A stretch of DNA of 64,000 bases from Alphaproteobacteria bacterium. Lineage in GTDB: Bacteria; Pseudomonadota; Alphaproteobacteria; Bin95. Both the position numbers and the translations under genes were made by a program. Below are positions 11,527 through 24,790 of this stretch, piece after piece (the stretch's first letter is position 1; each line of letters opens with the position of its first letter). Below the pieces are notes generated by a model. That model had not been told where the DNA came from. It saw only the letters and a program-made list of their open reading frames with translations, and ran no database searches. The DNA lies in the NCBI GenBank assembly GCA_963668305.2, contig CAXXPN010000001.1, forward strand, positions 416,001-480,000, given 5' to 3'.

Positions 11527-11574
11527 GAAATAATTCCCGAACAGGGCTTGACCTCAGAATATCGATGCTAGAAT
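11527..11574 (+). promoter_or_regulatory. Promoter of cassette copy A
   Basis: GAAATAATTCC (11527-37), TTGACC (11548-53), 15 bp, TAGAAT (11569-74, preceded by TGC); same spacing in copy B at 24743-24790 (-). Confidence 0.7.
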
Positions 11575-11972
11575 GGGCCCGAGGGAAGCGGCATGTACGG
11601 GCCGCCTTCCCTCTCTCCGGCCCGGCGCCGGAACGACCCCGATTCAACGCACGGCCGAAATGCGCCCGGCGTTTGCCTCGCGTCTGCGCAATCAGGCACG
11701 CGATATGCGCGCCGCCGCGAAACGCGCAGGCCTGCCCGCACGCGATACGCGCGAAACAGGGTCGCTCCCCGCCGGGGCGTCAACCGTCGCCCCGGCCCCC
11801 GCCTGTCCTCGCCCCCGAGCGGGGAAGCCGGGGCCCAGCCCTGCCGCTGCAACCGGTTGGGAAGGCCGGGAGATGGACCCCGGCTCGGGGGCCGGGGTGA
11901 CGACTGTGGGTCGGACCCGATACCGCAACGGATGTCCGAACTGAACGCAAGCGGAACGAAGGAGCCACCGCC
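11575..11972 (+). ncRNA. Putative structured leader/ncRNA of cassette copy A
   Basis: Hairpin 11581-11613, second hairpin TCCGGC-CCGGC-GCCGGA, GCACGCGATAYGCGCG twice (11696, 11738); equivalent elements in copy B. Confidence 0.45.
11785..11902. repeat. REP/MITE-like nested palindromic element
   Basis: Outer arms CGTCGCCCCGGCCCCCG / CGGGGGCCGGGGTGACG (16/17), inner arms AGCCGGGGCCCA / TGGACCCCGGCT (11/12); absent from copy B. Confidence 0.6.
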
Positions 11973-12929
11973 ATGGCCATACTCGACCCGACCGTAGCCC
12001 TCTCCACACGCCAGGAGGCCTTCTGCCGCCACTATGCCGTCTCCGGCAATGCCGCCGACGCCGCAAGGCAGGCCGGCTATTCGGAGCGCTCCGCCCGCCA
12101 GACCGGATGCGCCTTATTGGAACGACCCTATATTGTCGAACGGCTGCGGCGCATCCGCCTGTCGTGGAAGCGCATCGAACGGGACGAGGCCCGCATCGTG
12201 CTGGCGCGGCTGGAGCAGGCCTGGGATGCCGCCGTCGCCAGCGGCTCGGCCTACATGATGCTCCGGGTCCTGCGCTTCCAGGCCGAGCTCTCCGGGCTCG
12301 TCAGGCCCGCCGGGGCCAACCGGGCCCGCCTCTGGCCGATGCCGGAGGAGGACGAGTTCGGCGAGATGGAAGCCGGCGGGGCGGAGGCGGCCGGCACCGG
12401 GCCCGGCCCGCTCGCCGAGGCCGTGCGCCGGGGAAGGGACCGCGCCGAACGCTCCCTCGCACGCCACCGCGAAAGCCGGGAGGCGCTGGAACGGCAGGAA
12501 GGCTTCGACGGGGCCGCGCATGAGGAGGCCGCCCGCAGGCTCGCGCAAGCCGTCGAGGAGCGCGAGCGCCTGCCCGTCCGCTTCGAGCCGCCCGGACCCG
12601 CTTCACCCGAAGACCTGCCCCCTGCCGACGACCCGCCCGAGGAGACCTACGAAGACGGCCTGTGGACCGGCGACGACGACAGGATCGACGACGACAGGGC
12701 CGACGGTGCCGAACACGACTGGCTCTACCAGCGCCGCAACGGCTACGCCGAACTCTACGACCCCTGGGCGCCGGAGAACATCGACTTGCGGAGGCGGGAC
12801 CGGCTGGCAGGGGAAGAGAGGCGCTGCGGCAACGGCCCCGGCAATGCGGACCGGACGGACGACCCGGACCGGGAGGACGGCGACTGGTTCGACAGTATGG
12901 AATTCGCCCCCGGCCATGACATCGCATGA
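11973..12929 (+). CDS. Protein with terminase-small-subunit-like N-terminal HTH and acidic low-complexity C-terminus
   Basis: AAGGAG RBS; LSTRQEAFCRHYAVSGNAADAARQAGYSERSARQTGCALL resembles the phage TerS N-terminus; no other phage genes nearby. Confidence 0.7.
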   Translation: MAILDPTVALSTRQEAFCRHYAVSGNAADAARQAGYSERSARQTGCALLERPYIVERLRRIRLSWKRIERDEARIVLARLEQAWDAAVASGSAYMMLRVLRFQAELSGLVRPAGANRARLWPMPEEDEFGEMEAGGAEAAGTGPGPLAEAVRRGRDRAERSLARHRESREALERQEGFDGAAHEEAARRLAQAVEERERLPVRFEPPGPASPEDLPPADDPPEETYEDGLWTGDDDRIDDDRADGAEHDWLYQRRNGYAELYDPWAPENIDLRRRDRLAGEERRCGNGPGNADRTDDPDREDGDWFDSMEFAPGHDIA

Positions 12930-12942
12930 CATTTCATGACAT
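12915..12942 (+). repeat. Three CATGACAT direct repeats, 10-bp period
   Basis: Copies at 12915, 12925, 12935; the ORF stop TGA lies within the second. Confidence 0.85.
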
Positions 12943-13042
12943 GTCGCAGGGGGGCCGATGCCCGGCGGGGAGAGGCCGGGAGAGGGCCGGCGGCCGTGCA
13001 ACCTGGCGAGGCCTCGCCAAGCCGAGCCAGCGGCCGGGGCCG

Positions 13043-13438
13043 CTACGGAGCAGTGCCCAGGCCCGTGGGCGGTCCTTTCAGTTCGACGGTGTTGCCGTCC
13101 GGGTCGCGAATATAGATCGACGGCCCGGTGCCCTCGGCCCCGTAGCGCGGAAGCGCCGCTTCCGTCTCGATGCCGTGCTCAGCCAGGTAGGCCCGCAGCC
13201 CGGCTTCGTCGAAGGGCGCAATGCGGACCGCGAAGTGGTCCATATTGGCGCCGGCCGGTTCCGGGTCGCCGGGCACCAGGTCGATCAGGCTCGCGCCGGC
13301 GCGCAGCTGCACCAGGCCGATCTCCTCCAGCCGCCGCTCCTCCCGGCAGCCGAGCACGCCGGCATAGAAGGCAAGCGCTGCTTCCATGTCGCGGACCCGG
13401 AGCACGACATGATCGAGATTGCGGATGCGAAAACTCAC
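13043..13438 (-). CDS. VOC/glyoxalase family protein
   Basis: LDHVVLRV...FY, DHFA, RDPDGNTVEL; GTG start with GGAGG RBS. Confidence 0.85.
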   Translation of the reverse strand: MSFRIRNLDHVVLRVRDMEAALAFYAGVLGCREERRLEEIGLVQLRAGASLIDLVPGDPEPAGANMDHFAVRIAPFDEAGLRAYLAEHGIETEAALPRYGAEGTGPSIYIRDPDGNTVELKGPPTGLGTAP

Positions 13439-13499
13439 GGCTCTACCCTCCCCTCGGTCGATGCTGCGCCCCATATTGGGCCCTGAAGGAGGATGTGTC

Positions 13500-22610: not shown

Positions 22611-23717
22611 ATGCCTGACATCGTCGTGATCGGCGCCGGCATGGCCGGGGCGTCCGCCGCGCACTTCCTCGCCCGGCGCTTCGACGTGTTGCTGCTGGAG
22701 CGCGAGGACCAGCCCGGCTACCACACCACCGGCCGCTCGGCAGCGCTCTACACGCAAGCCTATGGCAATGCCGCGATCCGGGCGCTGACCGTCGCCTCGA
22801 AGCCGTTTTTCGACGAGCCCCCGGAGGGTTTTGGCGACGTGCCGTTGCTGATTCCGCGCGGCCTGGTGCTGTTCGGCCGCGCCGACCAGTCGGCCTCGCT
22901 GGAAGGCGCATTTCGCGACGGCCGGCGGTTCGTCCCGGAAATCCGGATGCTGGACAGCGAAGGTGTTCGCCGGCTGATCCCCGCGCTCCGCCCGGATTAT
23001 GTGGCCGGAGGGGTGTATGAGTCGGAAGCTGCGGATATCGACATTCACGCCCTGCACCGGGGCTTCCTGCGCGGCGTGCCGCTCAGCCGCAATGCCGAGG
23101 TCGAAGGGCTGGAGCGCACGCCGGACGGCTGGCGGGTGGCGCTCCGGGGCGGGGAGGCGATCGAGGCCCGCATCGTGGTGAACGCCGCCGGGGCCTGGGC
23201 GGACGAGGTGGCGGCGCTTGCCGGCGCGCGGCCCATCGGGCTGGTGCCGAAGCGGCGCACCGCCTTCACCTTCGAGGCGGATACCGGGGAGTGGCCGATG
23301 GCGGTCGATGTCGATGAGCAGTTCTATTTCAAGCCGGAATCGGGCCGCGTGCTGGGCTCGCTTGCGGACGAGACGCCCTCGCCGCCCTGCGACGCGCAAC
23401 CGGAGGAGATCGACGTGGCGACGGCGGTGGACCGGATCGAGCGCGCGACCGACTTCCGCATCCGCCGCATCGAGCGGCGCTGGGCGGGCTTGCGCAGCTT
23501 CGTTGTCGACAAGACGCTCGTGGCCGGTTTCGACCCCGATGTTCCGGGCTTTTTCTGGTGCGCGGGGCAAGGCGGCTACGGCATCCAGACCGCGCCCGCC
23601 ATGGGGATGGCGGTCGCGGCGCTTGCGGCGGGCGAAGGTCTGCCGCCCGAGGTCGGCGATCTCGGTCTCGACGAGGCAGTGCTTAGTCCCGCCCGGTTCC
23701 GGGGAGGCGCATCGTGA
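22611..23717 (+). CDS. FAD-dependent oxidoreductase (DAO/D-arginine dehydrogenase-like)
   Basis: [33 protein letters not shown]. Confidence 0.88.
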
Positions 23718-24343
23718 CGATCGAGGCCGTGCTGTGGGATTTCGGCGGGGTGGTGACGGAGAGCCCGTTCGACGCCTTCGCCCGCTATGAGCGCGCCAAC
23801 AGGCTGCCGGAAGGCGCGGTCCGGCGCATCAACAGCCGCGACCCGGACCGGAATGCCTGGGCACTGTTCGAGCGCAGCGACATCGACCGGGTGGAGTTCT
23901 GCCGGCTGTTCGAGGCCGAGGCGGCCGCGCTCGGCTACAGGGTGGACGCCAGCAAGATCCTCGATCTCATCCAGGGCCCGGTGCGGCCGGGCATGGTGGC
24001 GGCGCTGCGCGCCGTTACGGCGCGCTACCGGACGGCCTGCCTCACCAACAATATGCGCGCGCCGGGCGAGGACAGCCCCCGCGCCCGCGAGATCGCAGAA
24101 GCGATGGCGCTGTTCGACGCGGTGGTGGAGTCGCGCGAGGCGGGCGTCCGCAAGCCGGAGCCGGCCTTCTACCGGCTGGCCTGCGAGCGCCTCGGCGTGA
24201 AGCCGGCGGCCTGCGTCTTCCTCGACGATCTCGGCATCAACCTGAAGCCGGCCCGCGCCATGGGCATGGTGACGATCAAGGTCGAGACCGAGGCGCAGGC
24301 GCTCGCCGAGCTGGAGGCGGCCCTCGGCCATCCGCTTTTCTGA
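23714..24343 (+). CDS. HAD-family hydrolase
   Basis: WDFGGV, LTNN, RKPEP, FLDD motifs; GTGA overlap with upstream gene. Confidence 0.88.
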
Positions 24344-24425
24344 GGGCGCGAGCCGCTCCGGACGACTCTGCGGTTGCCGGTTTCGGGCAGAGGCGGTGCG
24401 GTTTTGCCGAAAGGACCCTCGCAAA

Positions 24426-24443
24426 GTGTCATGAGATGTCATG
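24426..24443 (-). repeat. Two CATGACA(T/C) direct repeats, 10-bp period (cassette copy B end)
   Basis: Minus strand reads CATGACATCTCATGACAC, matching CATGACATTTCATGACAT at 12925-12942. Confidence 0.75.
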
Positions 24444-24555
24444 ATCTGCATGCGGATGGCGCATAGGCGATGGCCCGTTCGGGCATGGAGCCGTCGCTCC
24501 GGGCAGGGGGCTGCGGGTATTCCGCCCGGTTTTCCCGGCTTCGCGTCTTCGGCAT
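24439..24555 (-). CDS. 38-aa ORF of cassette copy B (peptide or internally deleted remnant)
   Basis: AAAGGA RBS, ATG 24555, stop inside a CATGACAT repeat as in copy A. Confidence 0.4.
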   Translation of the reverse strand: MPKTRSRENRAEYPQPPARSDGSMPERAIAYAPSACRS

Positions 24556-24742
24556 GGGTCGTTCCTTTCGATCTGTCCTCGCTCCGTTCTCTCGGCCGCC
24601 AGCCCCATCGGGTAGCGGGACCCTATATCCGCGCGTATCGTGCGTATGTGCGCGCACCTGAGCCCGCGAGTGCCTTTTCGCGCCGGCGCGAAACGGGAGA
24701 AGAGGCGGCCCCGCGCGGATCCCGCCTTCTCTATCCTGTTCC
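24556..24742 (-). ncRNA. Putative structured leader/ncRNA of cassette copy B
   Basis: Hairpins 24697-24731 and 24676-24693; GCACGATACGCGCGGATATAGGGTC (24619-43) homologous to 11738-11763. Confidence 0.45.
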
Positions 24743-24790
24743 ATTCTAGCACGGATATTCTTACGTCAATATTTTATTCGGAATTATTTC
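24743..24790 (-). promoter_or_regulatory. Promoter of cassette copy B
   Basis: Minus strand GAAATAATTCC-N10-TTGACG-TAAGAATATCCGTGC-TAGAAT, same layout as 11527-11574. Confidence 0.7.

Follow-up and report, generated by a model that had tools for sequence, protein, structure and literature searches.

Two loci in a 64-kb stretch of an uncultured alphaproteobacterial genome, one long (copy A) and one short (copy B), belong to a large family of dispersed DNA units that is real and, as far as we have searched, undescribed. This stretch, called here the window, spans positions 416001-480000 of contig C1 in the source genome (G000; 5.5 Mb, three contigs, 67.5% G+C). Each unit opens with a promoter-like head, continues into a conserved leader of ~270 nt, has a variable middle with one open reading frame (ORF) and closes with a tail of phased CATGACA heptamers. 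A sequence-only reading of the window had inferred a dispersed family of mobile or selfish units, some full-length and others minimal, which keep their cis elements but not the ORF. This central inference stands and is strongly supported, since the genome contains 104 heads, 93 of them followed by a tail within 2.6 kb.

To account for the family, we lean towards selfish, self-promoted head-cargo-tail cassettes that derive from an orphan terS module and spread through intergenic DNA. The promoter-like head consists of TTGAC and TG-N-TAGAAT behind an A/T-rich UP-like box; it runs at once into a 5'-terminal hairpin and then a long structured leader rich in G+C. The ancestral or master form would be an orphan small-terminase-like helix-turn-helix (HTH) gene of the SPP1/SF6 G1P type, ending in the tail. 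Most other members would be internal-deletion or replacement derivatives that specify only a structured RNA of ~350-450 nt, and a few would wrap other genes: a lineage-only family of ~200-aa proteins and an isochorismatase-family gene. On this view, the gain, loss and spread of the units in intergenic DNA resemble those of selfish, non-autonomous elements, and the TerS-like protein of intact copies might bind phased heptamer arrays in cis and in trans, in a pac-like manner. In one species (G009), the units would ride on a palindromic miniature inverted-repeat transposable element (MITE).

Two copies of one unit in the window

Copy A, a whole TerS-type unit (head, leader, terS-like ORF and tail), occupies 11492-12953 on the forward strand (+), with ends taken from an alignment of nine TerS-type copies. 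Copy B, a whole short unit of the 'MPK' type, lies on the reverse strand (-) at 24415-24825, and its ends are approximate. The two heads are matched by nhmmer at C1:427519 (E 2.3e-37) and C1:440796 (E 2.5e-27), respectively. Six features had been claimed as common to the two copies, and all of them were located where they had been placed and in the same order.

Both heads fit the pattern GAAATAATTCC-N10-TTGACS-N15-TAGAAT without mismatch, at 11527-11574 (+) and 24790-24743 (-). When up to three mismatches are allowed, the 64 kb still hold exactly these two matches, with 0.00 expected from 100 shuffles. In copy A, the UP-like GAAATAATTCC spans 11527-11537, TTGACC 11548-11553 and TG-N-TAGAAT 11566-11574; in copy B, GAAATAATTCC spans 24790-24780, TTGACG 24769-24764 and TAGAAT 24748-24743. 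Directly 3' of this motif, two hairpins can be read from the sequence of each copy: H1 at 11581-11613 and H2 at 11616-11632 in copy A (together 11581-11632, +), and their counterparts at ~24733-24696 and 24693-24676 in copy B (together 24676-24733, -).

The structured leader of copy A, a 5' untranslated region delimited by conservation over 90 aligned copies, extends over 11575-11972 (+). It includes a conserved GC-rich box, GCACG(CG)ATACGCGCG..AGGGTC, at 11738-11763, which recurs in copy B at 24643-24619. The two leaders align well over their first ~200 columns only, and the stretch leading up to the ORF is longer by ~200 bases in copy A. A purine-rich region follows, with GAAC-N7-GAAC in copy A and GAAC-N7-GGAC in copy B, 5' of a GGAG/AAGGA ribosome-binding site. 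The ORFs, of 318 aa at 11973-12929 (+) and of 38 aa at 24555-24439 (-), both have their TGA within the penultimate CATGACA. In copy A the tail holds three heptamers with a 10-bp period at 12915-12941 (+), the ORF stopping in the second; in copy B it holds two with the same period at 24427-24443 (-). The tail pattern CATGACANNNCATGACA has three matches in the window against 0.15 expected, and 0 of 100 shuffles reached three.

The ORF coordinates also bear out the claim that both copies sit between convergent 3' ends: copy A between ORFs at 10404-11414 (+) and 13043-13516 (-), copy B between ORFs at 23714-24343 (+) and 24871-26091 (-).

The alphaproteobacterial LexA box is GAAC-N7-GAAC. The motif at 11949-11968, just 5' of the terS-like start codon, is by its resemblance a candidate for such a box, and it is kept at the same place in terS-type copies of other genomes.

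A high-copy family restricted to one genus

Further copies were sought over the whole source genome, as the sequence-only reading had advised. The promoter-like pattern with up to three mismatches has 26 matches there (reversed control, 0), and an nhmmer profile built from the head and 100 nt of leader finds 104 copies, distributed as 16 + 68 + 20 over the three contigs. An independent scan for clusters of at least two exact CATGACA found 110. A same-strand cluster lies downstream of the head within 2.6 kb in 93 of the 104 copies and within 6 kb in four more (97 in all), while seven heads have none. Conversely, 14 of the 110 clusters have no head, and these are mostly second tail modules just 3' of a complete unit.

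Typical units measure 350-500 bp, thirteen 'mini' units 126-244 bp and terS-type units 1.3-1.8 kb. Conservation begins ~17-35 nt 5' of GAAATAATTCC and ends ~15 nt 3' of the last heptamer. The nine aligned TerS-type copies, a young subfamily, have sharp limits, ~35 nt 5' of GAAATAATTCC and ~12 nt 3' of the last CATGACA. Mini units begin only ~15 nt 5' of the TTGAC box, and the left end is unlike between subfamilies. Orientation is independent of the direction of replication, with 55 of 104 units co-oriented overall (10/16, 37/68 and 8/20 by contig).

That head and tail are coupled, whatever cargo they enclose, is shown by the isochorismatase-family gene (Pfam E 1.9e-28), which at C2:791428 has a truncated head on one side and a tail on the other. 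Among ten genomes with this gene, it has both leader and tail in six (G000, G015, G016, G007, G005 and G012) and neither in three (G006, G008 and G014). A leader without a tail was not seen; in G010 the tail is present and the contig ends 367 bp upstream, so that the leader could not be scored. G005 and G007 have the downstream flank in common with the bare forms of G008 and G014.

Related metagenome-assembled genomes (MAGs) were searched in the same way and with a covariance model of the leader, both of which had been proposed, and the family is confined to one genus. The triple-heptamer pattern (up to one mismatch) and copy-B DNA each occur in 13 of 16 congeneric genomes, in none of eight genomes of other genera in the family and in none of 16 from other families in the class; the reversed triple-heptamer pattern gave 0 in every genome. 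The covariance model (first 105 nt) picks out the same 13 of 16 congeners, with at least 48-106 matches each, and none of 20 genomes of two sister genera, the order examined comprising 37 genomes. Among the matches listed in a scan of one genome per species, nearly all records with the tail pattern bore the title 'MAG: Alphaproteobacteria bacterium' or 'Rhodospirillaceae bacterium'. By their record titles, family-bearing MAGs are sponge-type. The leader is absent from ten stray loci with the tail pattern (Dyadobacter, Planctomycetota and others) and from the 13 viral loci examined. The family is thus genus-restricted and high-copy, in uncultured alphaproteobacteria.

Dyadobacter flavalbus (Bacteroidota) has three loci (L045, L062 and L067) with triple CATGACA and no leader, which may be an unrelated repeat of that genome.

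Presence and absence at orthologous sites

Orthologous sites were compared between relatives, another suggestion of the sequence-only reading, and units are present in some and absent from others. The intergenic site of copy B measures 527 bp in G000, 33 bp in G012 and 99 bp in G008, with flanks 83-87% identical. In G015, the gene end is followed there by two to three tandem units of another subtype, and G016 has none. The mini unit at C2:1442164 is missing from G012 and G008, where the flanks are clean. A block made of a mini unit and a 1.5-kb gene lies between convergent genes in G000, in a place where G016 and G015 have 8-20 bp; in other genomes this gene is found elsewhere, with no unit in front. 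The unit at C2:1434926 also occurs in G016, at 91% identity, and where G000 has the terS-type unit C2:1453120, the same site in G016 holds an internal-deletion derivative. Finally, in G015, G016 and G005 (window 13000-32000), gene order breaks exactly at copy B, with the left and right flanks far apart. Units may be hot spots of rearrangement. They would move at the DNA level, with machinery that the unit itself does not provide.

A small-terminase-like gene under selection

Copy A had been read as encoding a TerS-like HTH protein, and Pfam, PHROG and fold matches agree. The protein matches Terminase_2 (E 1.6e-12, residues 11-80) and phrog_51 (E 1.9e-14), and its best Foldseek matches are SF6/SPP1-like small terminases, among them the DNA-binding domain 4zc3 with a template-modelling (TM) score of 0.86, a root-mean-square deviation of 1.5 Å and 41% identity. 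After the N-terminal HTH, the predicted model (mean pLDDT 65.9) has long helices over residues 52-106, no barrel and an acidic C-terminal part of low confidence. The match to full-length 3zqq is poor (TM 0.17/0.39), and phage terS genes match over residues 7-122 only, at 28-51% identity.

The terS-like gene is clearly real, coding and under purifying selection. Eight terS-type copies are found in the source genome, together with two internal-deletion derivatives. Over the eight paralogues, the in-frame codon differences comprise 1044 synonymous and 1445 nonsynonymous ones; with the frame shifted, these figures become 444/2096 and 347/2120. Entropy over residues 1-120 is 0.138/0.052/0.366 by codon position, the third positions varying most. 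In the protein collection there are 358 relatives, and the best 120 of the 358 are assigned to this lineage on account of their 65-92% identity. The gene occurs in 12 of 13 family-bearing congeners and in none of the three that lack the family; many of the fragments resemble deletion derivatives.

Head and leader

TTGACC and TAGAAT each agree with the sigma-70 consensus at five of six positions, and a TG stands one base before TAGAAT. The housekeeping promoter consensus of Caulobacter is TTGACGS-N10-14-GCTANAWC, which we take the arrangement of the head to fit. Transcription would start ~7 nt 3' of TAGAAT, judging from the position of this box. The -10-like box is followed directly by a first hairpin of at least 8 bp in 129 of 162 distinct copies.

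Changes within the 5' hairpins compensate one another, which is supportive of the structure, not conclusive. With 63 copies aligned to model R1, the paired share of cells is 80.2% (shuffles, 75.5%), and 94 both-side changes are found against 44.6; none of 500 shuffles reaches either value. The covariation score is 0.228 against 0.159 in shuffles (again 0/500) and falls to 0.04-0.12 when partners are slid by 1-3 columns, in a test made on related copies with an alignment fitted to the tested structure. H1 and H2 carry this signal, with both-side changes in 10 of 16 pairs. Consensus folding of the gapped alignment returned zero pairs, and the leader structure was accordingly set by hand. A long-range pairing of two GCGCCGGCGC palindromes, proposed by RNAalifold, was rejected: the TerS subfamily cannot form it and keeps a local hairpin.

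A match to an Rfam family had been named as telling against a new element. None was found: the sole Rfam hit in the window is tRNA-Sec, and the copy A region at E<=10 gives only chance-level matches, far below gathering scores. A full-text literature search also found no description, in line with the sequence-only reading, which had not recognised a described element.

The sequencing runs consulted are contigs, not raw reads, and they count neither for nor against expression. The tables of runs X17 and X18 do not differ, and these runs may be duplicates of a single data set. Other members of the family are the most likely source of a joint in X7 between 11686 and 24675, which lie on opposite strands in it, and high depth over copy A in the runs reflects multicopy mapping.

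The tail

Over the 110 clusters, the tail has the consensus CATGACAaAaCATGACAttTCATGACActTCgcggg and consists of 2-5 CATGACA heptamers, 10 bp apart. This spacing is one helical turn and puts the repeats on the same face of the helix. Three repeats at this spacing also supply TGA and ATG in all three frames, and therefore every ORF ends in the tail. All subfamilies and species examined have the same heptamer, CATGACA; of the 34 phased heptamers in G008, 30 are exact, usually two per tail. We take TGTCAT to resemble a PhoB box; it occurs in 0 of 89 upstream flanks of 120 nt, which tells against terminal inverted repeats.

The best hint as to what maintains the tail comes from G009, the one family-bearing genome in which terS was undetected. 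It has 0.93 exact heptamers per unit, with none in 13 of 28 units, against 3.32 per unit in 41 units of the source genome, a set chosen for having a tail. This single natural comparison hints that intact tails depend on the TerS-like protein.

Weighing the selfish-cassette reading

Several observations count against the reading of the units as selfish cassettes born from a terS module. The first concern movement. As had been stated from the sequence, there is no transposase, integrase or other recombinase inside any of the units examined. There are no terminal inverted repeats either, the ends being unlike (a head at one, a direct-repeat tail at the other). No clear target duplication was seen at three filled-versus-empty sites, where flanks are 83-91% identical and junctions fuzzy, and no empty paralogous site was found in G000. 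G009 has 48 leaders, many of them nearly identical, as after a recent burst, and decayed tails. In that genome leaders have multiplied without a detected terS, so that neither terS nor the tail was necessary for amplification.

Others concern the proposed parts. The head is a putative promoter by its motifs, and a sigma-70 scan requiring a spacer of 16-18 nt found no site in either copy, the spacer being 15 nt. H3 hardly varies, and 70.8% of its cells pair; the covariation test has the limits given above. RNA contigs cover the units thinly and give no 5' or 3' ends. The counts of neighbour orientation used below come from a crude gene caller covering 64-67% of the genome. Binding of the phased heptamers by the TerS-like protein, in the manner of a pac site, is a tentative proposal, which we hold to be possible and not probable; support from co-variation is missing because both partners are invariant. 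Finally, the source genome has no hits to PF03354, PF03237 or PF04466 (TerL ATPase), nor to PF05065 or PF04860 (HK97 capsid, portal), and its one match to Terminase_6C (PF17289; C1:733186-733494) is borderline, at 25 bits with an internal TAG.

That Terminase_6C match adjoins ORFs matching phrog_436 and phrog_6841, PHROGs of unknown function, 14 kb from a terS-type unit. The region, C1:731686-734994, may be a decayed phage remnant.

If the selfish-cassette reading is true, this would be a dispersed bacterial repeat on an unusual plan: a complete, strongly promoted unit with a matched head and tail wrapping unrelated genes. The sole family-specific protein with a recognisable domain would be a phage small-terminase homologue, in genomes without clear packaging genes. 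The questions raised are how cassettes move without a recombinase, what an orphan TerS does and what purpose is served by a leader RNA of ~270 nt from ~100 genes. In practical terms, the annotation of sponge-type alphaproteobacterial MAGs is affected at ~100 loci per genome, coincident with gene-order breaks; these loci are presently unannotated or named 'terminase small subunit' or 'hypothetical'.

Are the units conventional non-autonomous transposons?

Could the units instead be MITE-like transposons of a conventional kind, moved in trans by an enzyme encoded elsewhere, with terS and the other ORFs as passengers? They do resemble MITEs and other non-autonomous repeats in being small, intergenic and present in many copies, with lineage bursts, internal deletions of longer members and insertion polymorphism (104 copies, empty orthologous sites). 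Within a single genus, some genomes have no copy and others over 100. In G009, ~22 of 28 heads are fused at one constant point to half a palindromic MITE with GTCACCCCGGACGG subterminal repeats, and these fused copies are nearly identical, the signature of a recent burst. Promoter-bearing non-autonomous interspersed repeats are known in the Correia elements of Neisseria. Yet unlike MITEs, the units lack terminal inverted repeats, a clear target duplication and an autonomous relative encoding a transposase: the longest intact ones encode only the terS-like HTH protein, between dissimilar ends. In addition, the left end varies by subfamily, with minis beginning ~15 nt before TTGAC, the MITE motif lies within 300 nt of only ~1/10 units in G000, a weak association, and a candidate enzyme was not identified. 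We consider this explanation unlikely.

Three particular routes were tried and set aside. Single-strand transposition of the IS200/IS605 kind was ruled out, as the expected replication-strand bias is missing (55/104 co-oriented). An integron-like arrangement with a tail before every head did not hold: of 89 upstream flanks, 12 contain CATGAC, where the background has a mean of 3.6 and a maximum of 10. This small surplus keeps to no particular position and is partly due to neighbouring units. Insertion beside terminators, or an insulating terminator at the left end, was rejected too: a hairpin precedes the T-run in 32 of the 56 heads and in 270 of the 400 controls, and the folding energy is equal.

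A link to phage packaging?

The terS-like gene also invites a reading as a minimal phage satellite, transduction beacon or packaging decoy. In this scheme TerS would bind the CATGACA arrays and recruit the large terminase of a pac-type phage, so that chromosomal DNA beside ~100 loci would be packaged or the phage's own packaging derailed. The purifying selection on eight paralogues, a fold closest to SF6/SPP1 G1P and repeats phased by the helical turn at the end of the gene are what such a role would predict. As described in PMC4737164, the SPP1 pac region likewise has direct repeats, in three sets that extend over the promoters and the beginning of terS. SPP1/SF6 G1P with its pac site is like the unit in its homologous N-terminal HTH, its repeats beside or within the gene and the promoter in the module. 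The unit differs in having no adjacent terL, portal or capsid gene, eight paralogues per genome and an acidic, low-confidence C-terminal half, and its repeats, a candidate site only, stand at the 3' end and at ~100 loci.

It is in fact no working packaging module, as units end 12 nt after the tail and no large terminase adjoins. Hexamer repeats are also carried by the pac site of P1, and terS is carried by satellites such as Staphylococcus aureus pathogenicity islands (SaPI) and phage-inducible chromosomal islands (PICI). The units resemble these satellites in having a terS-like gene outside a phage and possibly depending on a helper. They are unlike them in lacking an integrase, att sites, replication genes and a repressor, in their size (0.15-1.8 kb against ~10-15 kb) and in being amplified ~100-fold within a genome.

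Since G000 has no clear packaging genes, a packaging role would need an incoming phage. This lack of machinery of its own suits a helper-dependent element, but we know of no helper phage for these units. Viral contigs give only distant TerS relatives (three loci, 29-36% identity), the leader is found in 0 of 10 viral stretches with the tail pattern, and neither the terS-like nor the 'MTATDP' protein of the units (the ~200-aa family) matches PADLOC or NCBIfam. A packaging role needs neither a strong promoter nor a leader on ~90 units without terS, and leaves the spread within the genome unexplained. For these reasons we find it improbable.

A bolder version is a new class of mobile cassette: a phage satellite reduced to terS and a pac-like array, multiplied to ~100 loci, which has captured host genes between head and tail and needs the packaging or cutting machinery of an outside phage, or some host equivalent, in order to move or be transduced. 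We regard this as doubtful; if true, large parts of the chromosome would be preferentially packageable.

Run X7, labelled 'viral metagenome', contains 56% of the sampled words of window 15300-25200, and 28 of the 30 bins between 10500 and 25500 have cover from its contigs. This cover of a chromosomal stretch may be cellular contamination or particle-borne host DNA, which are indistinguishable, and we did not use it as evidence of packaging. Virome depth is not raised over copy B, at 22.8-25.9 in its bins against 18-31 beside them; contigs being weak evidence, this too was used neither for nor against packaging.

Short units as genes for small RNAs?

The 38-aa ORF of copy B (24439-24555, -) had been taken as a peptide, and this part of the sequence-only reading is not supported: it is probably not a conserved coding sequence. 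The reading frame differs among 19 copies related to copy B. In 17 in-frame 'MPK' ORFs of 41 aa, codon-position entropy is 0.91/0.94/0.84, without periodicity, and synonymous/nonsynonymous changes number 479/3235 against 531/3132 and 580/3124 in shifted frames, without synonymous excess. Short units therefore lack the conserved short coding sequence of a type I toxin-antitoxin system or small protein, and are best read as non-coding.

This raises the idea that the family consists of host-serving, multicopy small-RNA genes, kept because they are useful. Their products of ~350-450 nt would act as regulators or sponges, with CAUGACA binding a protein or loading Rho. The head, strong and conserved in its promoter-like sequence, and the compensating changes in the 5' hairpin are consistent with it. 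So is a tail rich in A and C and poor in G (A 36%, C 28%, G 16%, T 19%) with no intrinsic terminator found 3' of it, TTTT occurring within 70 nt in 7 of 110. By the gene caller mentioned above, 40 units in co-directional gaps share the orientation of both neighbours, against 9 (27 units lie in convergent gaps and 17 in divergent ones), which also fits. However, positions are not kept between species, three congeners have no unit at all, the cargo ranges from nothing to an enzyme gene, the tails of G009 decay while its leaders multiply, and no target or partner is known. We accordingly give this explanation little credence.

Other cargo and mobile promoters

The second cargo family, the 'MTATDP' proteins of ~200 aa, has 160 relatives, all of this lineage. 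It has no Pfam match, its model has a pLDDT of 78, and no PDB fold matches better than E 3.6.

An expression wrapper or mobile promoter, offering captured or neighbouring genes a strong promoter, a stabilising 5' hairpin and a stop/start tail in three frames, would suit the isochorismatase gene wrapped in six genomes and bare in three, the mini unit directly upstream of the relocated 1.5-kb gene, the heptamers that give TGA and ATG in every frame and the downstream neighbour co-oriented in 57 of 93 cases, but it is very unlikely, as most units are gene-free and 36 of 93 are convergent with or antisense to their neighbour.

Likeness to two known systems is conceptual only. 'Mobile promoters', as described in the accessible part of PMC3575422, are near-identical promoter regions before unrelated sequences; the unit promoter differs from those described there in coming with a structured leader of ~270 nt and a matched, co-occurring tail (PMC3575422). 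Integron cassettes likewise hold variable cargo, including enzyme genes, between conserved boundaries, and units form occasional tandem arrays (G015); units differ from them in having their own promoter and leader each, no attC-type repeat and no integrase platform, and in being dispersed. A further parallel is the REPIN/RAYT system, which in the accessible part of PMC8049555 consists of long-lived within-genome sequence populations confined to a lineage. The units, unlike those, are not palindromic doublets of repetitive extragenic palindromic (REP) sequences.

Neighbouring and inserted elements

A search of the plasmid collection with window 9400-13600 gave 0 matches, and among 16 congeners no orthologue of the gene at 10404-11414, beside copy A, reached E<=1e-30. 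A selenocysteine tRNA gene (window 9200-9290, +; Rfam tRNA-Sec, 72.5 bits) lies ~2 kb 5' of copy A.

The palindromic MITE is a separate family, with TTGTC(G/A)(T/C)CCCGG subterminal repeats around a GGGGTCCAG...CTGGGTCCC core. One copy, G000:C3:356648-356906 (L150:11648-11906), is an insertion missing from all five relatives compared. Others lie inside or beside several units and upstream of most G009 heads (L169-L198).

DDE genes in some copies are not the unit's own; they are IS4-like insertions interrupting it. This IS4-like insertion sequence (DUF4372 + DDE_Tnp_1, 447-456 aa) interrupts units C2_830423 (L008:1869-3047, -), C2_98527 and C2_398684, and is also found in the tail of C2_1619703. 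Two cases enter the same point of the third heptamer, which suggests that the element prefers the tail as a target. A second insertion, of ~230 bp and starting GTTCATTGCAGGGGGGACC, lies between the tail heptamers of C2_577548 and C2_2763807 and is another small tail-targeting element.

A recurrent REP-like motif, GGTTCCGATC..GACCGCTGGTAT(A/T)AGG, is found beside units and at gene-order breaks, for example downstream of G000:C2:1442164 (L149 ~8890-8920) and in G016 (L147:300-360).

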